Below, in pieces: positions 1,718 through 16,920 of a stretch of DNA of 64,000 nucleotides. The DNA is from Anaerovorax odorimutans (GTDB taxonomy: Bacteria > Bacillota > Clostridia > Peptostreptococcales > JAAYPU01). How positions within the stretch are numbered: the first letter of the stretch is position 1; each line of letters opens with the position of its first letter. A program made the translations under genes and the position numbers. The notes under the pieces were generated by a model, which searched no databases, was not told the origin of the DNA, and saw only the letters and a list, made by a program, of their open reading frames with translations. Where the stretch lies: positions 10,364-74,363 of the forward strand of contig JAENZQ010000001.1 in NCBI GenBank assembly GCA_016841185.1. Reading direction: 5' to 3'.

Positions 1718-2971
1718 TTAATCAATCTGTGTTTCCGCGTAAGGTATTTTTTCACTACCTGTTACCAAGAATACTGAATCTGCGCCAAATTGTGAAACAT
1801 AGCGCTTTACAATCACATCGCAGTATTTCGAGTCAAGCTCCATCATAAAACAAACCCGCCCGGTCTGCTGTGCCGCAATCATTGTCGTACCAGAACCACC
1901 GAACAGGTCAAGAGTTAAATCTCCAATATGGGAACTATTGAGCATTGCCTTTGCTACAAGCGATACCGGCTTCATGGTAGGGTGTTCCTCCGATACTTTA
2001 GGACGGGGTATCTCCCAAACATCTGACTGTTTACGGTCTTTAAGCGGGCAAAGTCGTGTTCCTTCAAGCCAACCATACCAGATCGGCTCGTACTGGGTAT
2101 GATAGTCCTTTCTTGATAGTACCAAGCTGTCTTTTTTCCATATAATTGTACTCGACCAGTGATACCCTACCTCCCGCATGACGTTCATCAAACTGCCCCA
2201 TTCCTGAGCACTCATTACTACATAGGTCATGCATCCGGCTTCGGAAACCTCTTTCATGCATTTAAAAGCGCGCAATAAAAAAGCGCCGAATTCTTCGGTG
2301 CTCATATTGTCATTTAGAATTTGTCTTGGCTTCCAGCTTGGATGCCTGGTATCTGAACCGTAATCAACATTCCAGGGTGGGTCGGTGAAAGCAAATCTCG
2401 CCTTTTGTCCGTTCATCAGCTTTTGCACATCTGAAAGCATGGTGCTATCACCGCACATCAGACGGTGGCTGCCAAGTACCCATATGTCGCCCTTTTTGGT
2501 AACCGGAATTTTAATCTCTGCAATTGCCTTTTCTGTATCGAAATTATCCTCTTTGACATTAGCGGTTGATTTATCACGGAACAACTCATCAATTTCCGCA
2601 GCATCAAACCCGGTAAGAGAAACGTCAAAACCATCTTCATTTAAATCCATAAGCAGATCGGTCAAAAGCGGAATATCAAACTCGCCACTGATTTTATTCA
2701 GTGCAACATTGAGCGCCTTTTCCCGCTGTTCATCCAAATCAACTACAACACAGTCGATCTCCTTATACCCCAAAGCTGTAAGTACTTTATAACGCTGATG
2801 TCCGCCGACAATATTCCCGGTGCGTTTATTCCATATGACCGGCTCTACATATCCAAACTCTTCAATGGATCGGCGGAGTTTCTCGTATTCAGGATCGCCC
2901 GGTTTTAAGTCCTTCCGCGGGTTATATTTCGAAGGTTTTAATTTTTCTGCTGGTATTTTCAGTATATCCAT
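1718..2971 (-). CDS. ParB-like N-terminal domain fused to beta-class DNA methyltransferase (DPPW motif, probably N6-adenine)
   Basis: N-terminal ParB/Srx-like region with GGHQR. Catalytic motif IV FTDPPW and C-terminal motif I LDLFGGSGTT (order IV then I = beta class). Confidence 0.85.
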   Translation of the reverse strand: MDILKIPAEKLKPSKYNPRKDLKPGDPEYEKLRRSIEEFGYVEPVIWNKRTGNIVGGHQRYKVLTALGYKEIDCVVVDLDEQREKALNVALNKISGEFDIPLLTDLLMDLNEDGFDVSLTGFDAAEIDELFRDKSTANVKEDNFDTEKAIAEIKIPVTKKGDIWVLGSHRLMCGDSTMLSDVQKLMNGQKARFAFTDPPWNVDYGSDTRHPSWKPRQILNDNMSTEEFGAFLLRAFKCMKEVSEAGCMTYVVMSAQEWGSLMNVMREVGYHWSSTIIWKKDSLVLSRKDYHTQYEPIWYGWLEGTRLCPLKDRKQSDVWEIPRPKVSEEHPTMKPVSLVAKAMLNSSHIGDLTLDLFGGSGTTMIAAQQTGRVCFMMELDSKYCDVIVKRYVSQFGADSVFLVTGSEKIPYAETQID

Positions 2972-2976
2972 AAATC

Positions 2977-4275
2977 TTAACCCTCCAGTTTGACGGCTTT
3001 TTCGCCGGTGAATTCCTCCCAGCGCTTAACAGCTAAATCACAGTAAACAGGGGATAACTCCATTGCGTAGCATTTACGCTCGGTCTGTTCAGCCGCAATT
3101 ATAGTGGTGCCGCTGCCTGAAAACGGCTCAAGCACAATGCCGCCTTTGTCGCTGTGCATTTTGATGCACCGCCATGGAAGCTCTACAGGGAACATTGCAG
3201 GATGCTCCTTGTTTGCCCGGACAGTGGTCATCTCCCATATCCCAGCATAGCCCCATTTCTTGCGTTCTTCCTTTGTAAGCCGTTTCACAAATTTATAACT
3301 GTGTCCCGCAAAGGCTGAAAGCCATACATATTCCTGATCGTTATATTCCTCAGTCTCTCCTTTATTGCTGAAGGCTGAAATATACTCATATTGCTGAACC
3401 GGCTTGTTTGAAACAAGATGATAAGGTCCTACGCCGAAATTTTGCCCTTGTTTCTTCCAAATGCGGATCCAGATAGGGCGGTAACCGTTGGCCAAAAACA
3501 TATTCACACTGTAAACACTGGTGGGTTCAATAAACTGAGAGCCGGTGGCATAGAGATCACCTAAGTTCCAGCAGACAATATCTACATACCTGCACAAGTT
3601 TCTAATCACTGGGCGTACTGTCTCGAACCATGGTTCAATCCCGGCCTTTTCATATTCTTTGCCTACCCCATATGGAGGGGAAGTCACTGCCATCTGTGCG
3701 TGACACCCTTCCATCAACTTCTCAAAATCCTCATCCTTAGTAGAGTCGCCGCACATCAAGCGATGATTCCCGAGAAGCCAGATATCGCCCCGCTTTGATA
3801 TTGGTTCGCGCTGAATAATTTCATCATGCGCCTTGTCTATGTCAAAGCTGTCCTGCACCGCTTCCTTGGAGTACCAGCGGTTGAGCAGCTCGTCAATTTC
3901 AGAAGCGTCAAACCCTGTAAGCGAAACATCAAATGCACCTGCGTCCAACTCAGCCATCAGTTCAGCCAGTTTATTCTCGTCCCACTCTCCCTGAATCTTA
4001 TTAAGAGCAAGATTAAGCGCTTTTTCTCTCTGCGGGTCAAGATCCACTACAACGCAGTCTATCTCAGTCTGTCCCAAGTCCAGCAAAACCTTTAAGCGTT
4101 GATGCCCGCCTACCACATTACCTGTTTTTTGGTTCCAGATAACAGGCTCCACATAGCCAAATTCCTCTATTGACCGTTTTAGCTTTTCATATTCCTTATC
4201 GCCAGGTTTTAAATTCTTGCGTGGGTTGTATGCTGCTGGATTAAGTTTTTCAACAGATATTTTTTGTATGTTCAT
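2977..4275 (-). CDS. ParB-like N-terminal domain fused to beta-class DNA methyltransferase (SPPY motif, N4-C or N6-A)
   Basis: N-terminal region highly similar to the neighbouring paralogue (GGHQR). Motif IV TSPPYG and motif I LEPFSGSGTT. Confidence 0.85.
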   Translation of the reverse strand: MNIQKISVEKLNPAAYNPRKNLKPGDKEYEKLKRSIEEFGYVEPVIWNQKTGNVVGGHQRLKVLLDLGQTEIDCVVVDLDPQREKALNLALNKIQGEWDENKLAELMAELDAGAFDVSLTGFDASEIDELLNRWYSKEAVQDSFDIDKAHDEIIQREPISKRGDIWLLGNHRLMCGDSTKDEDFEKLMEGCHAQMAVTSPPYGVGKEYEKAGIEPWFETVRPVIRNLCRYVDIVCWNLGDLYATGSQFIEPTSVYSVNMFLANGYRPIWIRIWKKQGQNFGVGPYHLVSNKPVQQYEYISAFSNKGETEEYNDQEYVWLSAFAGHSYKFVKRLTKEERKKWGYAGIWEMTTVRANKEHPAMFPVELPWRCIKMHSDKGGIVLEPFSGSGTTIIAAEQTERKCYAMELSPVYCDLAVKRWEEFTGEKAVKLEG

Positions 4276-4432
4276 CTTGCATTCTCCTGTTCAATATTTT
4301 CTTAAGACCCTTTTTAGCACCCTCACAATCTCCGTTTATTACTTGTCCCCGCAGAGTCTTAAACTGCTGCTTCGTTAAATGGTCTTCATATTTTCTTAGT
4401 TCCCTAAGAAAGATTGAATTTGCTTTATGCAT
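4250..4432 (-). CDS. Small hypothetical protein (60 aa)
   Basis: Internal ATG at 4432 of ORF 4250-4543, preceded by AGGAGG and overlapping the terminase stop (TGATG). The longer 97-aa version would overlap the terminase gene by about 110 nt. Confidence 0.35.
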   Translation of the reverse strand: MHKANSIFLRELRKYEDHLTKQQFKTLRGQVINGDCEGAKKGLKKILNRRMQDEHTKNIC

Positions 4433-4983
4433 CAGCCACCCCTCCTGGCTGTCAGTAGTTTTTCCATCACATCGTCGTGGGGAGTGGCCCCCTTGTATTC
4501 GGTAGCACAGTTTTCCCGCACGACTTGATAAATTTGATACCACAGGTTATTGGCCTGTTTCATGAAGCTTTGACTCATAGCCACATAAGGTGACGGGATG
4601 GCATTGCCAGTTGTCGGATGCTTAGCAAGAAAGCCAAATTCAGTGATACATTCCTCGCACTGGATCCACCGCGCCACACTCTGGGCATATTGCTCTATAA
4701 GCTGCGCAGGGATAAGGTGAACACACCTGCGTTCCTTAAGCCACTGCCATGTTTTTTCGTATATTTCCACCGCCAGTGTTGTTTTTCCGTTCTTCTGCTT
4801 TGCAGCAAGATAATCCCTCGGTAGCGGCATGCTCTCGCCTTCCAGTTCCTCAGCATCCGTAAACTCCATTACCATGAGCTTTCGTCTGCCGGGATTTCCT
4901 TCCAAAATCTTATCCGCCAGAGGCTTTTTCTTCTGTCCTGCACCGATACGTGCCCCGCCGCGGTTGGTACCGTCCTTTGCCAT
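4432..4983 (-). CDS. Phage terminase small subunit, P27 family
   Basis: N-terminus ..GGARIGAGQKKKPLADKILEGNPGRRKL.. is typical of P27-family small terminases. It lies directly downstream of an HNH gene. Start set to ATG at 4983 (GAGGTG 6 nt upstream); 4989 or 4992 are also possible. Confidence 0.75.
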   Translation of the reverse strand: MAKDGTNRGGARIGAGQKKKPLADKILEGNPGRRKLMVMEFTDAEELEGESMPLPRDYLAAKQKNGKTTLAVEIYEKTWQWLKERRCVHLIPAQLIEQYAQSVARWIQCEECITEFGFLAKHPTTGNAIPSPYVAMSQSFMKQANNLWYQIYQVVRENCATEYKGATPHDDVMEKLLTARRGG

Positions 4984-5103
4984 ACACATCACCTCGATTC
5001 ATGTAAAAATAAACAGGGGATATACCCCGTTTGAAACTGCGATTTTTCGCGCGTGACCCCCCGCCCGTTGCACGAAACATATCCACCGGAGATTTTGACC
5101 CCC

Positions 5104-5463
5104 CTACCGTCTTGCCCATCGCTCTCCTTCACGAGCAGTGATCGAAGAGTGGCATCTCGTACACAGGCTCATGAGGTTGCCGTCCTCGTTGGTTCCGCCT
5201 TTGGATAAAGGGATAATATGATGCACCTCTTCGGCCGGAGTGAGCCTTCCGGCCTTTTGACATTCCTCGCAAAGCGGATGCTCTGAGATATATCTGTCCC
5301 TGATGCGTTTCCATCTCCGGCCATAGCGTTTTCTTGTTTGGGGATCTCGTTCGTATTTGTTGTAATAAGCATCCATTTGCCTTTGATGCATGTCACAGTA
5401 CCTTCCGTCCGTCAGTTCAGGACAGCCAGGAAAGGAGCAAGTCCTTTTTGGTTTTCTTGGCAT
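5104..5463 (-). CDS. Phage HNH endonuclease (terminase-associated type)
   Basis: Cys-rich N-terminus (CSFPGCP..YCDMH) and HNH core (CEECQK..EVHHIIPLSKGG..NLMSLCTRCH). RBS GGAGG upstream. Confidence 0.85.
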   Translation of the reverse strand: MPRKPKRTCSFPGCPELTDGRYCDMHQRQMDAYYNKYERDPQTRKRYGRRWKRIRDRYISEHPLCEECQKAGRLTPAEEVHHIIPLSKGGTNEDGNLMSLCTRCHSSITAREGERWARR

Positions 5464-5486
5464 CTGGCCACCTCCTTTACAGGTAT

Positions 5487-5522
5487 AAAAAAAGCCCTCA
5501 CAGGTTCATCCCATGAAGGCTT
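5487..5522 (-). terminator. Intrinsic terminator-like hairpin plus U-run located between a promoter-like element and the HNH RBS
   Basis: Minus-strand RNA: AAGCCUUCA-13 nt loop-UGAGGGCUU followed by UUUUUUU. The single non-Watson-Crick position is a U-G wobble on the minus strand but a C-A mismatch on the plus strand. Confidence 0.5.
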
Positions 5523-5544
5523 ATCCATAACTTTTCACAATACC

Positions 5545-5589
5545 ATTATATTTGGTTTTTTACTGAATTTCATCTCATAAAAATCTCAT
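5545..5589 (-). promoter_or_regulatory. Promoter-like TATAAT with a conserved 19-nt direct-repeat element (ATGAGAT-TTTT-ATGAGAT-G) exactly 20 nt upstream
   Basis: Minus-strand TATAAT = plus 5545-5550. 19-mer = plus 5571-5589. An identical 19-mer with identical spacing recurs at 5932-5950/5906-5911. Confidence 0.45.
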
Positions 5590-5597
5590 CTGGAATA

Positions 5598-5828
5598 CTA
5601 AACAGAACATTTACTTTTTGCCCATGGCATCCTGCCGTTATAATACTTATCGGAGATATACCGCTGCATATCGGGTGGTAAAGCTGCAAGCAAAAGATAA
5701 GCCTTTTTTCTATCTTCCTCTAACTCTTGGGTGCTTTTATAGAAGGAACATTTATCTTGCTGACACTTGTGTACAGTCAGGATATTACAGCCATTCCTTC
5801 CGTTACTGCCAAAACAATTATCGTACAT
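5598..5828 (-). CDS. Small cysteine-rich protein (possibly Cys-rich VLP-like)
   Basis: 76-aa ORF with several Cys (CFGSNGRNGCN..HKCQQDKCSFYKS) and RBS GGAGTGAGG. The family assignment is from memory only. Confidence 0.5.
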   Translation of the reverse strand: MYDNCFGSNGRNGCNILTVHKCQQDKCSFYKSTQELEEDRKKAYLLLAALPPDMQRYISDKYYNGRMPWAKSKCSV

Positions 5829-5854
5829 CTTTCCTCACTCCTGTTTTATTGCAT

Positions 5855-5874
5855 AAAAAAGCCCCGAAGGGCTT
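5855..5874 (-). terminator. Intrinsic terminator-like hairpin (AAGCCC-UUCG-GGGCUU + U-run) between a promoter-like element and the RBS of the 76-aa gene
   Basis: Perfect 6-bp GC-rich stem with a UUCG loop, followed on the minus strand by UUUUUU. Confidence 0.55.
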
Positions 5875-5905
5875 ATGCGTTTTAATGTCATTTTTTCACG
5901 ATATC

Positions 5906-5950
5906 ATTATATATGGGATACCTGTGTTTTACATCTCATAAAAATCTCAT
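5906..5950 (-). promoter_or_regulatory. Second copy of TATAAT plus the 19-nt ATGAGAT direct-repeat element (same 20-nt spacing)
   Basis: Minus-strand TATAAT = plus 5906-5911. 19-mer = plus 5932-5950, identical to 5571-5589. Confidence 0.45.
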
Positions 5951-6025
5951 GCATAATTGACTTCTTTCTATGCACACTATAAAATATTTATATAATCAAA
6001 TTCTTTGAAAGCATTTCGCAAAGTA

Positions 6026-6057
6026 TTGACAAATCATGTGCCATGGTGTAATATAAT
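6026..6057 (+). promoter_or_regulatory. Sigma-70-type promoter for the Abi gene
   Basis: TTGACA at 6026-6031, 17-nt spacer, TAATAT at 6049-6054 (overlapping TATAAT at 6052-6057), about 75 nt upstream of the ATG. Confidence 0.5.
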
Positions 6058-6129
6058 ACTAACAAATCCCACAGGCCTCTGTCGTTGACATGCACACTTA
6101 GTGGGCTTTTTGCATTTAAGGAGAAAAAT

Positions 6130-7047
6130 ATGGATACCGTAAAACCATTCTTATCAATTGATGATCAGATAAAGTTATTGAAAAAGAGGAAACTGACTAT
6201 TAACGATGATCAATATGAAAAAGCGAAAGAGTTTCTGTTAAACAACAACTATTATCGAATAAGCGGATACTCTTTAACGCTACGTCAAAACGATACTTTT
6301 TTTGAGAGTGCTTCATTAGAAACATTGATACAAATATATGAAGCCGATCGACGTATGCGACATATAATGTTATCGGTTATTGAAGCAGTTGAAGTTCGAA
6401 TAAAATCAATGATTGCTTACTTCCATAGCGAAAAATATGGCCCTTTAGGTTATCTAGATATAAATAATTTCTGCTGTACTAATAACGGTAAAATCGATCT
6501 ACCGATAATTGAAAATTACCTTTACATAGCGAGAAAAGCTGATAATCAAAAAAATGCAATGACTGAATCAGAATTGTTTCTAAAACATCATAAAGAAAAT
6601 AAAAATGATATTCTACCATTTTGGGTTTATGTCGAGGTTCTCACTATATCTGATGCCTCTAAACTATATACGATTTTAGACGAAGAATTGCGAAAAACTA
6701 TAGCTCTCCATTTGGGCTTTACATCGAATAATAGACATAAGATAGTTGAAAATTTATTACATTGTATTACCATTCTGAGAAATATTTGTGCGCACGGTGG
6801 ACGCTTGTACAACCGTCTATTTACTAGAAAACCTTGGCTTTCAAAAAAGGAAAAAAACCTTCTCCGAGTCGAAAACGGTCATAAAGTTTACGATAAATTG
6901 TTTTCATACATATTAGTACTTAAATCAATCACTCTTCCTCAAGACTTTAAGCTTGTTGTTGAACACATAACTCAGATAAAAGAACAATATCCTTTGGTTG
7001 ACTTTAAGCATTATGGATTCCCCGAAAATTGGCAAGAAATACTGTAA
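6130..7047 (+). CDS. Abi_2 family abortive-infection protein (AbiD/AbiF-like)
   Basis: ATG at 6130 with AAGGAG 7 nt upstream; the track start at 6085 is a TTG. Sequence features typical of Abi_2: ..LNNNYYRISGY.., ..LRNICAHGGRLYNR... Opposite strand and visibly lower GC than the flanking phage genes. Confidence 0.8.
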   Translation: MDTVKPFLSIDDQIKLLKKRKLTINDDQYEKAKEFLLNNNYYRISGYSLTLRQNDTFFESASLETLIQIYEADRRMRHIMLSVIEAVEVRIKSMIAYFHSEKYGPLGYLDINNFCCTNNGKIDLPIIENYLYIARKADNQKNAMTESELFLKHHKENKNDILPFWVYVEVLTISDASKLYTILDEELRKTIALHLGFTSNNRHKIVENLLHCITILRNICAHGGRLYNRLFTRKPWLSKKEKNLLRVENGHKVYDKLFSYILVLKSITLPQDFKLVVEHITQIKEQYPLVDFKHYGFPENWQEIL

Positions 7048-7130
7048 TAAATTCATACTAACAAAGCATATTAATAAATAATAGATCCTACGAGCTTATT
7101 TTAAGCGCAATACAGTAGGCCATTAAAAAT

Positions 7131-7164
7131 ACCCACTTAGGTAGTTCGTTCTATCTAAGTGGGT
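7131..7164. terminator. Bidirectional terminator-like hairpin between the convergent Abi and regulator genes
   Basis: ACCCACTTAG-14 nt-CTAAGTGGGT (10-bp perfect stem), A-rich on the left and T-rich on the right. Confidence 0.5.
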
Positions 7165-7198
7165 TTCCTATTTAACATGCAGCTAATGTTATCTTAAA

Positions 7199-7654
7199 CT
7201 ACTTCCCGTATAAAAGCAGTGCCAGATGATTAAGTGCCTTGTCCTTCCTGCGGTACACCTGTGCTCTTTCAAGAAACAGCTTCTCTCCGATGTTTGCTAC
7301 AGCTTCTGTCTTGCTCACATCATTAACAAAAAATTCTGTCAGTATAAACTGTTCTTCCTCCGACAGGGCTTCCCAAGCAGGCTTGAACCACTCCATATAT
7401 TCTAATGCCCGTCTGTAACGTTCTTTCAACACATCAATCTCGTCAAGGCAAGCAGCAAGGCGTTCTTCGCCGCTTTTGGGATTGTGTTTGCCCGGAACTC
7501 CGGTATTCTTTGCACTATGAGGGCTTGTCATACGGGTTTCAATTTCATATATATCCTCATCACTGTGTTCGATAATGTACTGCATGCTGCTGTAATCTTT
7601 CAAAGCTTCAACAGCAGCCGCTTTTTTATCTAAATACTGCCATGCAATCAGCAT
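7199..7654 (-). CDS. Phage transcriptional regulator, sigma-70 region-4-like / RinA-ArpU-like
   Basis: Start set to ATG at 7654 (GGAGG upstream). The C-terminus ..LSEEEQFILTEFFVNDVSKTEAVANIGEKLFLERAQVYRRKDKALNHL.. has the pattern of a sigma region-4 HTH. Its position just upstream of the HNH/terminase genes is typical for late activators. Confidence 0.6.
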   Translation of the reverse strand: MLIAWQYLDKKAAAVEALKDYSSMQYIIEHSDEDIYEIETRMTSPHSAKNTGVPGKHNPKSGEERLAACLDEIDVLKERYRRALEYMEWFKPAWEALSEEEQFILTEFFVNDVSKTEAVANIGEKLFLERAQVYRRKDKALNHLALLLYGK

Positions 7655-7760
7655 ATCGCACCTCCAAAAAATCAAGATAAAAAACCTTGATCTTTGAAGC
7701 AGTGTGCTTTTTTGCGTTGCTTTGCAGTGCTTGTTTCCTTGTTCGTTATGTCTTCGTTCT

Positions 7761-8048
7761 TTATAGAAGGCCATGCTTTTCCAGAATAACCTTCACCTCA
7801 TCTACCGAATGGACAACCGCTGCCACTCCTCCTGCATTGAGGATTTTCCTTATAGTTGCTTCCTGCAGTTTTGTTGTCTTTCCCGATGGGGTTTTTATTT
7901 CAAAAGCTATAAACCGTCCATTTACACAGGCAATAATGTCTGGTATCCCCGCTGTCCCGTACATACCACCATGTTCCTTCCAACAGAAACACCCCGGTAC
8001 TGTCTTTAAGTACCGCAGTACTTTAGTCACAATACTTCTTTCAGACAT
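7761..8048 (-). CDS. VRR-NUC domain nuclease
   Basis: 95 aa. ..GIPDIIACVNGRFIAFEIKTPSGK..Q.. matches the PD..ExK core of VRR-NUC proteins. Confidence 0.8.
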   Translation of the reverse strand: MSERSIVTKVLRYLKTVPGCFCWKEHGGMYGTAGIPDIIACVNGRFIAFEIKTPSGKTTKLQEATIRKILNAGGVAAVVHSVDEVKVILEKHGLL

Positions 8049-8151
8049 AACCGCTCATCCTCCAAAAATGTTACCTTTTTCCCTTTTATAACCTCGTAAT
8101 ATCCAAGAAGGGCATCTCATAAATCCGCTTTCCAAGCGCTTTTCAGGATTC

Positions 8152-8338
8152 TGTTACCTTGTTACCTCTTTTTGGGGTAGGTGTATACACAAATATTTTT
8201 ATTTTTATATTTTTTAGTCTTAAAAAAGCAATGGTACTTTCGCGCGTATATATAAAGTTTAGGTAACAAAGGTAACATCGGTAACAAGTGGCTATTCATC
8301 AGCGTTTCTAGCGTTACCTTTTTGTTACCTTGTTACCT
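8152..8338. repeat. Iteron-like array: eight GTTACC/GGTAAC hexamers (2 + 3 inverted + 3) flanking an AT-rich core
   Basis: GTTACC at 8153, 8161, 8313, 8324, 8332. GGTAAC at 8262, 8271, 8280. Perfect 16-nt direct repeat TGTTACCTTGTTACCT at 8152-8167 and 8323-8338. AT-rich stretch at about 8191-8228. Confidence 0.6.
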
Positions 8339-8347
8339 TTTTCAATA

Positions 8348-10903
8348 CTAAAGAGGCTCAATATCTGTGATTTCAAAGCCGCTCACATCGCATCGCTCTT
8401 TCAGTATCGAGAAATCAAGAGCCCACGCTTTTTTTGTTTCATTCTCGAAACGCATCGTTTTATTGCTCTCTATAAAAAAGTCACTTTGCCTCAATTGCTT
8501 CAAAAACTGGTTATATGGAAGACATTCACCAGTGATTGCATAATCGCGTCTGTACTTGGTATAGCGGTCATATACATCACAGAAACGAATCCCGATAACC
8601 TTGCCATCTTTATCAAAAGTGTAGTCTTGATTCGGAGCCAGTTTCATCCGGGCCATGATTTCCAGGGTCTGTTCTACAATGCTCTTGTTATTGCTGCCGC
8701 CATCCAGCAAGTACTCCTGCACACCGTTTTGAAGATATCGAATACATGTCCCTTTGTTAATGGGAAATACTTCAGCCCACGTTACATTAAGGAATTCACA
8801 CAGTTTGTTTACTAGGCTCAGTCCGGCATAGCAACAGGCGAGATTATTGACGATACGAGATGGAAACTCATCAGATATCTCTGACTTTGCTTCCTCATAC
8901 CACTTCTCTGCCTCAGCAACCGATACTCTGAGTGCTATATCCAGCAGGCTCCGACCGAAGCTGCCAAGCAGATCCGCTTTTGCACACAGCTTATAAAATG
9001 CTTGTCTGTGGCTGGCTGGTTTTAAGTCCTTCTTGCTGAATAGCAATTCTATGCTCCGTTCTCTGATGGCCGCTTCATCCGGCGATTCCTCACCAGCTAC
9101 AATAATAGGTGCCAACAGTTCATAAGTAACAGCACTTTGATCCGCCCTACCGCGGACACCTTCATGGCCGTCATATGCATCTCGAAGATGGTTGTATAAG
9201 GCATTTAGCCTTAACTTATCTATCTTTGAAGGCTTGAACTCATCCATCAACTGCGGTATCAGATTCGATGATGCAGATTCCTTCATCAGCGTAAATGCAG
9301 TAACCTGTGTAGCCGCGCGGATTTTACTGCATGAAAATACCGGCAGAATAACCCGCTCCAATGTATTACTTTTTCCGCTGCCTTGTTCTCCGACAAGCAA
9401 TAAATGAGGAAACTTGATACCTGATTTTTTTAGATGCGGTTTGATAAAGCACCCGGCCACCCAGGCCATTACTGATACCGTTTTTATGGGTTCGTTATAG
9501 CTGAGAAGCCATTCACCAAGCATAATAAGCTGTTCCTTTGTCAATGGTTCATAGGTTAGGATATCGGTTGTTATGCTTTTATACTTATCAAGCTGCACGA
9601 TATCTTCGACAATGTTGCCTCCGGCTTCAATGGCACCATCCGTTGAAACATATACCATCCGCCCGCCATGCTCATAAATTCCAAGAGCCTTGACCCCTGT
9701 TTTCCTTACCCACTCCATTTCAGATATATAACCTTTCAGCAGTTCCAAATCTCCTTCTGAGCCAAAATAGCCTAAGGATATTGTCCGGCGGTTCAAGATA
9801 TTTTTAAACTTTTGGATGTTATTGAAGTCGGTAGTCATAAATGTCTGGCGGTATATTTCATCGCGGATTGTAATAAGATCAGCAGTCATCTGCGTTTCAT
9901 CTTCTGATACAATCATCTCCACCGGCTGAATGATAAAGTTTGTTATAGGATACACACTTTCGCCTCTGGTGCGGTAATACCTGCCCTCATGTTCAAAGAT
10001 AACTGACTCGCTTTCGCGGCTGTATACGTTCTCTGTGACTTCAATGGCCTTATCCAGTGTCTCCTGCCCATATGTTGCGCCGCTAGCATGATGTACCGTA
10101 TCCCACTTTTCCCGGAATAACCCGGAATTTCTAAACAGCCTGTCCATCTGCTCTTTGTTTTTGCCTGACCAGAAAGCCAGCATACAGCAAAGAGCAAGGT
10201 CGGCTTCGGACTGGCTCGGATACCCTGCTTCCTGCCATTTTCCTTCCCATAGCAGATTAAATTCCTTATGGTTTTCGGCTGTCTGGGCTTTCTCCAGAAT
10301 TTCTTCATCTGTAAGCGGCTCTAGCTTAACCCCCTTACGGTCTTTCTTGCTTTTCCCTCTCCGCTTTTTACTTTTGATATAATTCTCATGTATCCAGGCC
10401 AGTGCCCCGTTATCTTCAGTAATGTAATCAGGAGTCCTTGGCAGTCGCTCGCCAGTCATTGTGAAGTATCTGCTGTGGGCATACATTTCAACACCGGTTT
10501 TAGTGTTTTTATTGCCCTTGGCAGGCATCTCCCCTTTATAGAAAATATGAAGCCCAGTTCCTGAAGGGCTGATTTCCGTATATGACGGAAACCGCTCAAG
10601 GATATCCTTGGCGGTATCGTTTAATTCCCCAGTGTATTTGTCGCGGCAGTGATCTATGTCTATCCCTACTAAGCCTCCGCTTTTTGCGAATACAAAACCC
10701 AATCCGGTATAGAGATATTGTTCTTTTGCCGCAATCGCATCGTCAAGGGTCGACCAGTCGTTTGGGTTAGTGCTTGAGGCTTTTCTTCCGGTTAAGGGAT
10801 TGTATGGGATTTTACTGTCTTTCCCGTCCTTTGTGTTTGGTTCCAGGCGCCAGCAGATCCATTGCTTCTGGTCAGCCAGTTCTTTAGGAAATGAGATGCT
10901 CAT
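8348..10903 (-). CDS. Phage/plasmid primase-helicase (N-terminal Prim-Pol domain plus P-loop NTPase)
   Basis: N-terminal ..GLGFVFAKSGGLVGIDIDHC..SPSGTGLHIFY.. (bifunctional primase-polymerase motifs). Walker A ..LLLVGEQGSGKSN... 851 aa. Confidence 0.85.
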   Translation of the reverse strand: MSISFPKELADQKQWICWRLEPNTKDGKDSKIPYNPLTGRKASSTNPNDWSTLDDAIAAKEQYLYTGLGFVFAKSGGLVGIDIDHCRDKYTGELNDTAKDILERFPSYTEISPSGTGLHIFYKGEMPAKGNKNTKTGVEMYAHSRYFTMTGERLPRTPDYITEDNGALAWIHENYIKSKKRRGKSKKDRKGVKLEPLTDEEILEKAQTAENHKEFNLLWEGKWQEAGYPSQSEADLALCCMLAFWSGKNKEQMDRLFRNSGLFREKWDTVHHASGATYGQETLDKAIEVTENVYSRESESVIFEHEGRYYRTRGESVYPITNFIIQPVEMIVSEDETQMTADLITIRDEIYRQTFMTTDFNNIQKFKNILNRRTISLGYFGSEGDLELLKGYISEMEWVRKTGVKALGIYEHGGRMVYVSTDGAIEAGGNIVEDIVQLDKYKSITTDILTYEPLTKEQLIMLGEWLLSYNEPIKTVSVMAWVAGCFIKPHLKKSGIKFPHLLLVGEQGSGKSNTLERVILPVFSCSKIRAATQVTAFTLMKESASSNLIPQLMDEFKPSKIDKLRLNALYNHLRDAYDGHEGVRGRADQSAVTYELLAPIIVAGEESPDEAAIRERSIELLFSKKDLKPASHRQAFYKLCAKADLLGSFGRSLLDIALRVSVAEAEKWYEEAKSEISDEFPSRIVNNLACCYAGLSLVNKLCEFLNVTWAEVFPINKGTCIRYLQNGVQEYLLDGGSNNKSIVEQTLEIMARMKLAPNQDYTFDKDGKVIGIRFCDVYDRYTKYRRDYAITGECLPYNQFLKQLRQSDFFIESNKTMRFENETKKAWALDFSILKERCDVSGFEITDIEPL

Positions 10904-15423: not shown

Positions 15424-16920
15424 AGCTTTCACCTCCTTCTGGAGCAAAGGGGTTTGTTCCTTTGCGGTAGTCGTCTATTAGCATTTTTGCAAGATCTGCC
15501 TTATTGCGCAGAGCTGTCAGAATTTTTGAGTCTACGGTACCCTTGGCGATAAGGTAGATATATGTGCAGCCGTTCTTCTGTCCAACTCTATGGATGCGGG
15601 CTTTTGTCTGCTCAAAATTCGACATGGAGTAATCAAGGGAGTAAAATACCATTGTGCTTGCAGCGGTTAGTGTAATACCAAGTCCAGCAGTTGCAATCTG
15701 GCCTACAAACACCATGCAGTCAGTATCATATTGAAACCGGTGGATTTGCTCTTGGCGGTCCTTAGTTGCACCATAAATACACGCATAGCCGATGTCCTTC
15801 TTCTCCAGCATCCTGCATATGGCATGGATTTCAGGAATAAACCTTGCTATGACAACCAGCTTATGTCCTTCTTGAATACTGCTTTCAAGGATATCTTCAA
15901 GAGCATTTAACTTGGCATCACTGACTTGCTCGATTTTCCCACCGTCATCGCTTCCGATGAAGCCCCCGGTTAATTGCGAAAGGCGAAGCAAGCGTGTTAG
16001 TATGTTTGTTGCTGTTACTTCTCCTGCTGACAGCTCAGTATAGCTTTGTTTGACAAGCTCTTTATATTTTTTCAAAGTTACAGGTTCAAGCTCAATATAG
16101 CGAATAATATCGGTGGTTTCCGGCAAATCCAGGCACTCCGCTTTGGTCGCCCGAAACGCAATGCTGTGAATCCTTTTCATCAAATCCTGTTCCATTGATT
16201 TTTTCAGCACCGGTGTATGGTTGCCATAGCCAACCATGTTGAAATACCGGTTTCGGAATGCATAAAAACTGTTACCAAAGACACGAGGATCAAGAAACTT
16301 ATACTGGCTGAATACATCTATGGCTTTGTTAGTTATAACCGTTCCTGTCAGTAGGAGCCGATACCGTGCAAGCAAGCCCAATCGGTGCATTGCTTTTGAA
16401 ACCGCCGTATTATGAGTTTTAATTTTGTGTCCTTCATCGGCAACGATAATGTCAGGATGCCAGTTTGCCAGTTCCTTTTCCATTCGCCATGCAGATTCGT
16501 AGTTGATTACCACTACATGGACACCTTCGCCAGTTAAAAATCTTAGTTGTTGGATTTTCTTTTGAATCGTGCCATTAAGGACTATAAGCTGATATGGGAA
16601 ATTTGCGAACCGTTTAAACTCGTCTTCCCACACTCCCAGAATGGAAAGCGGCGCAACTATTAGCACACGTTTTATTCTTCCTGCAGCAAGCAATGCTCCT
16701 ATAATGGCGATTGAGACAAGAGTTTTCCCAGTGCTGGTCAGCCCATTTCCATCAGGAGCGCTGCACCCCATCCGGAAATGGCAGAAACACCACCACCCTT
16801 CAGAAGTTCGAATAGACTGCAGATGAAATTGAAAGCACGAATCTGATGCTTGTATGGTCTGCCCTTTATGGGCATTGGAATTATTTGCTGCACTTTTGCA
16901 TTGCTCATTGAGGCTTGCAT
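15413..16920 (-). pseudogene. SNF2-family helicase interrupted by a 1-nt frameshift inside motif I
   Basis: Upstream ORF (start ATG at 16920, GGAGG RBS) reads ..RPYKHQIRAFNF..GAALLMEMG then stops (16738). The downstream ORF in the -1 frame continues LTSTGKTLV..., and joining them restores the SNF2 motif I (xLLxxEMGLGKT-like). Later motifs are present: DEGH (..IVADEGHKIK..) and the helicase C-terminal motif (..QTKARIHRVGQ..). Confidence 0.75.

Follow-up and report, generated by a model that had tools for sequence, protein, structure and literature searches.

The DNA analysed here is a stretch of 64,000 nucleotides (nt) from Anaerovorax odorimutans (GenBank assembly GCA_016841185.1, contig JAENZQ010000001.1, positions 10,364 to 74,363), hereafter the window. 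On its minus strand it carries the passage from the early to the late genes of a prophage. The early operon, with its VRR-NUC, primase and PolA replication genes, ends with a gene for a regulator of 151 amino acids (aa) and has no terminator of its own. Beyond the regulator lie two copies of a regulatory cassette, the first in front of a gene for a 76-aa protein and the second in front of an HNH endonuclease gene, which is followed by the gene for the terminase small subunit (TerS). Each cassette consists of a direct-repeat box, a spacer, a TATAAT hexamer, a GC-rich hairpin with a U-run, and a ribosome-binding site (RBS). The present analysis concerns this cassette, which we read as a predicted switch for the late genes, and the regulator that might operate it.

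An earlier note on this DNA had described a single type of cassette in two copies, in the order promoter, terminator, RBS, each with the same 19-mer 20 nt upstream of a TATAAT, and the sequence bears this out. An exact search of the window finds the 19-mer ATGAGATTTTTATGAGATG twice, both times on the minus strand (Table 1), and no further copy when up to three mismatches are allowed. Shuffled sequences gave 0.13 matches on average, and two or more copies occurred in 0 of 100 shuffles. The gap between box and TATAAT is exactly 20 nt in both cassettes, with only 9 of the 20 spacer positions alike (45%), and similarity continues beyond the box, where TATAATGrTATyGTGAAAA matches between the copies at 17 of 19 positions. 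The hairpin does follow the TATAAT as described; its distance, which had been put at about 25-45 nt, has to be corrected to 31 nt in copy 1 and 22 nt in copy 2.

Table 1. Features of the early-late junction (positions of the window)
Feature	Position	Strand	Description
Late regulator gene, Ltr-type, 151 aa	7199..7654	-	true start ATG 7654, behind a GGAGG RBS
Abi_2 gene	6128..7047	+	PF07751, 1.9e-45; inserted between the regulator stop and cassette 1; context, outside the switch
Box 1	5932..5950	-	5950-5932, ATGAGAT-TTTT-ATGAGAT-G; 7-N4-7 direct repeat with an 11-nt phase; predicted regulator operator
Core promoter 1	5898..5911	-	first hexamer (hex1) TATAAT 5911-5906, GA, second hexamer (hex2) TATCGT 5903-5898; no -35; predicted start near G5899, up to ~5890
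Leader terminator 1	5855..5874	-	hairpin 5874-5859 AAGCCCTTCGGGGCTT (AAGCCC-TTCG-GGGCTT) and T6; ends 27 nt before the ATG of the 76-aa gene
76-aa Cys-rich gene	5598..5828	-	phrog_27214, function unknown; served by cassette 1
Box 2	5571..5589	-	5589-5571, 19-mer identical to box 1; begins 9 nt past the stop codon of the 76-aa gene
Core promoter 2	5537..5550	-	hex1 TATAAT 5550-5545, GG, hex2 TATTGT 5542-5537; predicted start near G5538
Leader terminator 2	5485..5522	-	hairpin 5522-5492, 13 bp, core -15.8 kcal/mol, and T7; ends 22 nt before the HNH ATG
HNH endonuclease gene	5104..5463	-	PF01844, 1.1e-14; phrog_144; first conserved late (packaging) gene; served by cassette 2
Third terminator-like hairpin	5011..5032	-	AAACGGGGTATATCCCCTGTTT and ATTTTT, between HNH and TerS; beside two GGGGGGTCA repeats
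TerS gene	4432..4992	-	PF05119; phrog_83, 1.2e-36

The pattern recurs among relatives. A scan of IMG/VR for box, spacer and TATAAT recovered it in 48 viral contigs, 33 of which hold both copies, 360-364 nt apart in 30 of the 33. As a DNA query against a phage collection, the cassette found HNH-coding similarity only, and no cassette among the isolated phages. The search for regulator homologues gave 574 proteins, which led us to another 160 loci, some in viral contigs and some in GTDB genomes, and from IMG/VR and GTDB together we obtained 77 unique downstream regions, whose regulators are 50-99% identical. Their order is invariant: the regulator stop, a 19-nt bipartite box ending in G, exactly 20 nt, TAnnnT, 2 nt, TAnnRT, (G/C)RAAA, a hairpin with a U-run, and the RBS of the HNH gene. 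The layout of box, 20 nt, TAnnnT-NN-TAnnRT, hairpin with U-run and RBS stands 3' of regulator homologues in about 150 loci, and across relatives the spacer keeps its length while its sequence drifts. Most relatives read ...LLLYGK* TAG-TA-ATGAGAT, the box beginning 2 nt after the regulator stop. The arrangement of box, promoter and hairpin is a module, with chance excluded, and the layout of a promoter followed by a terminator before the gene, to which attention had been drawn at the outset, is real and conserved across relatives.

The module is also duplicated as a whole. Two kinds of relative (L005/L052 and L044) have one hybrid cassette each and no 76-aa gene; the 76-aa gene together with one copy of the switch is therefore an accessory insertion. 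The accessory gene came in with its own copy of the switch, and copy 2, which serves HNH, retains the leader and terminator of the ancestral arrangement; leader terminator 2 is the ancestral hairpin of the family, GCCTTC...GAGGGC. In other subfamilies the entire unit of box, spacer, hexamers, leader and terminator has been duplicated or triplicated independently. Duplicated units flank a small inserted gene in three loci (L154, L190, L192), and in four (L155, L157, L159, L172) two to three complete units stand in tandem with a spacing of ~127-270 nt, several of them with no open reading frame (ORF) between (for example L157, ~3456-3990). The two copies in the window are one case of this recurrent whole-module duplication.

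Over a wider range, 2956-10655 of the window matches the loci L129-L151 at 92-98% DNA identity over 1-6.4 kb. These loci come from species-representative genomes of very different Bacillota, namely Thermoanaerobacterium, Thermoanaerobacter, Tepidanaerobacter, Syntrophomonas, Acetivibrio, Thermoclostridium, Fonticella, Ureibacillus, Lacrimispora and a Desulfitobacteriia metagenome-assembled genome. Such identity across genera could stem from an unusually broad host range, from very recent spread or from contamination between assemblies.

Over the 77 unique cassettes, the class of the regulator's recognition helix and the class of the box pair one-to-one. The helix ERAQVYRRK goes with ATGAGAT N4 ATGAGA(T/C)G in 28 of 28 cassettes, ERSSAYN(K/R)K(N/S), including one KNN variant, with GAGTAAnnTnnnGGAyG in 33, and ERSWVYK with AGTGGA N5 GyGGACG in 13; ERTHVYRRK is paired with AGGGGAT N4 AGGGGACG in two cassettes and ERSQVYYRK with ACCGGAT N4 TCCGGACG in one. 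Because box class tracks helix class in this manner, the box is the predicted site of the regulator. The behaviour of known late activators of the Ltr superfamily agrees with this reading: an Ltr protein binds direct repeats located just past the gene that encodes it, late transcription requires the protein, and specificity for the repeats has been tied to the regulator experimentally for RinA, ArpU and LtrC (PMC3753634). The proposal that the protein encoded at 7199-7654 acts at the 19-mer is accordingly supported on three sides, by the position of the box 2 nt past the regulator stop in relatives, by the covariation of helix and box, and by its fit with the behaviour of RinA, ArpU and other Ltr proteins (PMC3753634).

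The cassette promoters have no -35 element. Where hex1 is weak (TATACT, TATTAT or TATGAT), it is preceded by TGn in 14 of 15 unique cassettes, as against 1-2 of 62 with other hexamers, and since TGn compensates the weak variants, hex1 reads as the -10 element of a sigma-A promoter. With hex1 as the -10, the box would lie at about -51 to -33, its centre near -42, which is the position of a class-II activator, and the predicted start would be the conserved purine at position 5 of hex2 (Table 1). Hex2 itself, invariably 2 nt past the -10, falls at about -4 to +2 and straddles this predicted start. We consider it very probable that the cassette is a promoter module dependent on the regulator. Its geometry recalls pho-box and other class-II promoters (PhoB; lambda cI at PRM), in which two 7-bp repeats, 4 bp apart and centred near -42, replace the -35 in front of a good -10. 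The box of the window is also a 7-N4-7 repeat near -42; unlike PhoB, the protein has a fold unrelated to response regulators, and the box stands 20 nt, not ~10 nt, from the -10.

By sequence, the regulator is a distant relation of the known late activators. It has no Pfam match, its matches to sigma regions 3-4 are weak, and it scores 24.6 bits against TIGR01637 (ArpU), below the cutoff of 43.1. Its PHROG matches (phrog_8834, phrog_36 and phrog_248) are annotated as transcriptional regulator or activator. Alignment by hhalign with RinA of 80alpha gives E = 0.0015 at a probability of 17%, and BLASTP gives no alignment with ArpU of phiFL2A. In an AlphaFold (AF2) model with a predicted local distance difference test (pLDDT) of 82.7, two long helices make up the N-terminal part, and the C-terminal domain is a three-helix unit, a helix-turn-helix (HTH) resembling sigma region 4. 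In Foldseek searches of the PDB this domain matches sigma domain 4 with template modelling (TM) scores of 0.71-0.73 and a root-mean-square deviation of ~2 Å, and in BFVD the full-length model matches phage proteins named Sigma70_r4, DUF1492 and 'transcriptional activator'. Within the published Ltr superfamily, Sigma70_r4 marks the LtrA family and DUF1492 the LtrB family (PMC3753634).

Gene order and operator position agree with the fold. In the known Ltr late promoters (RinA of 80alpha/phi11, ArpU of phiFL2A, LtrC of phi55/phi13, Alt of TP901-1) the regulator is the last early gene and lies directly upstream of HNH/terS, as here, where it follows the replication genes and precedes HNH and TerS. 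Both the Ltr systems and the family of the window have direct repeats with an 11-nt phase right after the regulator stop, and in both specificity resides in the sigma-4-like C-terminal part and the promoter is of sigma-A type, for the family of the window by prediction. What sets the window apart is the marginal sequence similarity and acidity of its regulator, which falls below the curated-family cutoff (TIGR01637 ArpU or the RinA model) and is not a small basic protein, and the minimal form of its module, with two repeats and a leader of ~50 nt. Judged by its structure, the regulator belongs to the RinA/ArpU/Ltr superfamily, and together with its operator it adds a new and divergent member to this known kind of late activator. 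The label 'RinA-like' given to the regulator by the earlier note consequently holds at the level of fold and superfamily and does not hold at the level of family scores.

One feature of the locus departs from this plan. In the window, box 1 is displaced by ~1.25 kb from the regulator stop by an Abi_2 gene, which is an insertion in the lineage of the window, since most relatives have the first box 2 nt past the stop. Several relatives carry Abi_2 or another insertion at the same point between regulator stop and operator. A terminator on the plus strand (7131-7164) accompanies the Abi_2 gene, which is of abortive-infection type.

We compared the regulator-to-terS regions of experimentally studied phages and found the same grammar. 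In 80alpha, the repeats TGGCAGT AAAG TGGCAGT are followed after 20 nt by the core TATTAT GA TAGTGT; the phi29-type has TGACAGT AAAA TGACAGT, also 20 nt, and TATTAT GA TATTGT; the phi69-type has TGGAAAAA GTC TGGAAAAA, 18 nt, and TAATAT GA TAGCGT. Lactobacillus PLE2 combines TGTCGCAT TCC TGTCGCAT with 19 nt and TATCAT GG TAGTAT CGAAAGG, and phiFL2A, with ArpU, combines three TTGGCGG repeats with 21 nt and (TGC) TAATAT AG TAATAT CGAAAG. In TP901-1 the Alt repeats precede (TGA) TATACT TG TATTAT GAAG, where the choice of the -10 hexamer is our inference from the sequence. The tandem-hexamer motif has a background frequency of 0.00024 per nt and lies 18-21 nt past the repeats in all six systems; its presence there is not due to chance. 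In seven of seven systems (80alpha, phi29-type, phi69-type, PLE2, TP901-1, phiFL2A and phi13), a terminator-like hairpin with a U-run follows the promoter and precedes the RBS of the first late gene.

In 80alpha, as in phi11, the rinA-dependent 5' end was mapped 23-24 nt upstream of terS, past the terminator, and the authors were surprised in 2011 that RinA depends on sequences lying more than 155 bp further upstream (PMC3152322). Without RinA, read-through from upstream is stopped by a terminator located between rinA and terS (PMC3152322). Cognate activation requires a 59-nt block just distal to rinA, and this block also suffices for it, whatever unrelated DNA is joined downstream (PMC3753634); counted on the sequence, the block is made up exactly of the box, the spacer, both hexamers and 4 nt. 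The published 5' end has no convincing -10, and the promoter formed by box, 20 nt and TATTAT-GA-TAGTGT lies ~130 nt upstream, in the 59-nt block (L210 2222-2408; DQ517338 16221-16407). Its TATTAT occupies 16263-16268 of DQ517338 (L210 2263-2268). This suggests that late transcription of 80alpha may actually start beside the repeats. For phi13, mapping has put the late start beside the repeats, and this start requires a TATA box of sigma-A type (PMC13123087).

In TP901-1 (L215 1600-2000) and phiFL2A (L216 14400-14720), the long late leaders contain tRNA-like sequences, for example GGTTCGAATC... with T-arm motifs. In both leaders these sequences lie downstream of the Ltr-dependent promoter and upstream of the terminator in front of terS.

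The leader hairpin of the cassette has the makings of an intrinsic terminator. A scan for terminator-like hairpins followed by T-runs gave 9 sites in 3.5 kb against an expected 2.5 +/- 1.7, and the folding z-scores are -2.9 for the hairpin of copy 1 and -4.3 for that of copy 2. At least three T follow the hairpin directly in 86 of 93 unique cassettes. When 28 distinct hairpins were anchored at the base of their stems and ten pairs were compared with 500 shuffles, 95% of cells held standard pairs, a percentage biased upward by the use of RNAfold hairpins as anchors, and compensatory change on both sides was present in eight of the ten pairs. The observed pairing and compensation were reached by 0 of 500 shuffles, and controls slid by 1-3 columns paired at 32-58%. 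A GC-rich stem-loop is thus followed directly by a U-run, and its structure is kept by compensatory change. The hairpin begins ~18-28 nt past the predicted start and the U-run ends at about +45 to +55, directly before the RBS. Only 22-27 nt, RBS included, lie between U-run and ATG, which leaves no room for a second promoter, so every late transcript must cross the hairpin. In our judgement the leader hairpin is likely to be a working terminator or attenuator, and promoter-proximal RNAs of ~45-55 nt are a sound prediction.

There are also hints of covariation in a pairing between the 3' arm of the terminator and GCCC after the U-run. A permissive Rfam 15 scan of 4800-7300 returned no match near its gathering score, the best being His_leader with 26.2 bits against 49.

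From these elements we propose the following mechanism. The regulator would bind the 7-N4-7 repeat through its sigma-region-4-like HTH, as covariation and the superfamily literature suggest. To judge from the geometry, it could then, from about -42, recruit the host sigma-A RNA polymerase to a promoter with a consensus -10 and no -35, and the conserved purine of hex2, ~7 nt past TATAAT, would be the start of transcription. The terminator in front of the RBS, to which sequence and covariation point, lies 18-30 nt into the predicted transcript and would act as a gate. It would stop polymerases coming from the early operon and, at copy 2, also the transcripts of the 76-aa gene, and it would truncate part of the transcripts of the late promoter itself, giving rise to the short RNAs of ~45-55 nt. 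Because the operator abuts the regulator stop codon, the early operon has no place for its terminator other than past the late promoter; and since the layout of promoter before terminator is real and conserved, late transcripts need some read-through. In the last and weakest step, this read-through could be conferred by the regulator on the polymerase at the promoter, following the logic of lambda Q at PR'-tR' without homology to Q, and the invariant second -10-like hexamer would be a candidate hold or loading site. We give regulator-conferred read-through rather less than an even chance; our estimate for the entire chain, this step included, falls just short of even.

Antitermination of the lambda Q type is plausible by analogy. 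With the Q/PR'/QBE/tR' system the window shares a regulator gene immediately upstream of the late promoter and a regulator site at that promoter (predicted here), an intrinsic terminator between promoter and late genes with a short terminated RNA (likewise predicted), and a -10-like hexamer just downstream of the real -10. Unlike lambda, the window has no Q-family homology. Its promoter, without a -35, looks activator-dependent rather than constitutive; its regulator site lies upstream of and over the -35 position and not between -35 and -10; hex2 lies at -4 to +2, where the lambdoid element occupies +1 to +15; and its terminator lies at ~+50 instead of ~+200.

Several observations weigh against the proposed mechanism. 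The regulator is acidic, with a computed isoelectric point (pI) of 5.3, whereas Ltr proteins are described as basic, and it stays under the ArpU family cutoff. Neither Q nor any other antiterminator has a homologue among the scanned regulator and neighbour proteins (Pfam, NCBIfam, PHROG), and there is no Q structure among the Foldseek PDB matches of the regulator. The position of hex2 is off that of the lambdoid sigma-dependent pause. Start site and termination efficiency are predictions for this regulator family, and the share of paired cells in the covariation test is biased upward by the choice of anchors mentioned above. In many relatives the U-run is short or interrupted (TTTC, TTTTAC), which fits a deliberately leaky terminator equally well. 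Moreover, if the mapped start of 80alpha/phi11 is real, that phage needs no read-through at all.

The main rival explanation is a plain activator combined with a leaky terminator. Here the regulator would only recruit polymerase, and the terminator would be a passive, partly efficient insulator or attenuator that blocks read-through from the early operon and cuts late expression by a fixed fraction, the polymerase remaining unmodified. We regard this as a serious possibility, though one well below even. Simple activation suffices for a promoter with class-II geometry and no -35, the frequent short or interrupted U-runs and the stem of only 4-6 bp in copy 1 point the same way, no antiterminator homologue was found among the scanned proteins of the element, and the abutment of box and regulator stop by itself demands that the early-operon terminator be downstream of the promoter. 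Read-through conferred by the regulator is nevertheless favoured because the terminator of copy 2 looks strong, with its 13-bp stem, -15.8 kcal/mol and U7, and because its counterpart in 80alpha is efficient against upstream transcription: without RinA, it fully stopped read-through from an induced plasmid promoter (PMC3152322). Serial arrays argue likewise, since two to three successive promoter-terminator units would waste their upstream promoters if the terminators were efficient and the polymerase unmodified, and so make little sense otherwise. Finally, an invariant -10-like hexamer beside the -10 would suit the holding of a sigma-containing polymerase for factor loading.

Alternatively, the short RNA could be the product, the cassette being primarily a late small RNA (sRNA) gene of ~45-55 nt, with an A-rich 5' tail and the terminator hairpin, and the downstream genes being reached by read-through. 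This does not exclude the other readings of how read-through comes about. The tandem arrays without ORFs (L157, L159, L172), each unit a promoter, ~50 nt and a terminator, do resemble a multicopy sRNA array, and there is a precedent in the short PR'-tR' RNA of Shiga toxin (Stx) phages, which acts as an sRNA (PMC7547250). We find it improbable all the same: past (G/C)RAAA neither the sequence nor the length of the unpaired 5' part is well conserved, Rfam has no match, and the unit always stands directly before an RBS, in front of essential packaging genes that have no other promoter. It is similarly improbable that the regulator is a true alternative sigma factor, reading the promoter-proximal half-box as a -35 and the double hexamer as a -10 region. 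Some sources annotate homologues as 'specialized sigma subunit', the weak profile matches to sigma regions 3-4 would fit, and the double-hexamer core, rare as it is in the background (0.00024 per nt), is common to the RinA, ArpU and Alt systems, which are unrelated in sequence. The model, however, shows two long helices and a sigma-4-like domain with no sigma-2-like domain, the spacing between box and hexamer is 20 nt rather than 16-18, and TGn compensation is a signature of housekeeping sigma-A. In addition, the late TATA box of phi13 was read as a sigma-A-type -10, and its mutation abolished promoter activity (PMC13123087). Far less probable still is that the leader RNA sets read-through, by a translated leaderless mini-ORF or by an alternative antiterminator fold that masks the 5' arm of the terminator. 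The predicted positions +1 to +3 are GTG or ATG in 77 of 93 unique cassettes, and a 5-codon ORF in copy 2 stops 3 nt before the hairpin; yet 16 of the 93 have ATC, ATT or ATA in that place, and the stops are scattered, the earliest lying 21 nt before the hairpin and the latest 47 nt past its start. On these grounds we rejected translation-coupled attenuation by a leaderless mini-ORF. An antiterminator helix is disfavoured by the leader of 15-25 nt, too short for a competing helix, and none is predicted by folding.

Returning to read-through conferred by the regulator, a broader form of the idea would take in all Ltr-type regulators (RinA, ArpU, Alt and the present family). They might load on RNA polymerase at the shared TAnnnT-NN-TAnnRT core and make it resist the leader terminator universal to these late operons, which would amount to Q-like antitermination on a sigma-region-4 fold. 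In this generality we think it unlikely. If true, it would explain the puzzle of 2011, namely why RinA depends on sequences more than 155 bp upstream of the mapped 5' end of terS: transcription would in truth begin within the 59-nt block, next to the repeats. The Ltr papers retrieved speak of 'the terminator of the ltr gene' and place the 80alpha start after it (PMC3152322; PMC3753634; PMC13123087), and our literature searches found no description of antitermination or of a promoter-proximal terminator in RinA/ArpU/Ltr systems. In the papers that these searches retrieved, three features appear to be undescribed: the leader terminator as an obligatory element, the double-hexamer core that Ltr families share, and the modular duplication of the whole unit.

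Control of the late operon times DNA packaging and lysis in temperate Firmicutes phages, and hence the transduction of pathogenicity islands and resistance genes. Ltr activators are known and their mode of action is unclear, the RinA site and the mapped start being more than 155 bp apart with a terminator between them. The window offers a minimal switch with natural replicates, in which operator, -10, terminator and RBS fit into ~120 nt and no alternative promoter is possible. It thereby makes the long-standing oddity of RinA directly testable, the claim being that late transcripts begin beside the repeats and must cross the terminator. The shared core-promoter signature also lets such switches be found in uncultivated phages.

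Among the products of the genes downstream of the cassettes, the 76-aa accessory protein, with a pI of 8.9, carries cysteines at four N-terminal positions (C5, C14, C22 and C27) and may be a small zinc-binding protein. The gap between the HNH stop and the TerS start (5000-5103, minus strand) contains two G-runs, TAGGGGGGTCA and GCGGGGGGTCAC, 44 nt apart, followed by the hairpin at 5032-5011. This gap is a candidate cos or terminase recognition region, with a candidate third terminator within the late operon. Directly downstream of TerS, and still within the late operon, are two tandem ParB_N + N6_N4 DNA methylase genes (1718-2971 and 2977-4275, minus strand).

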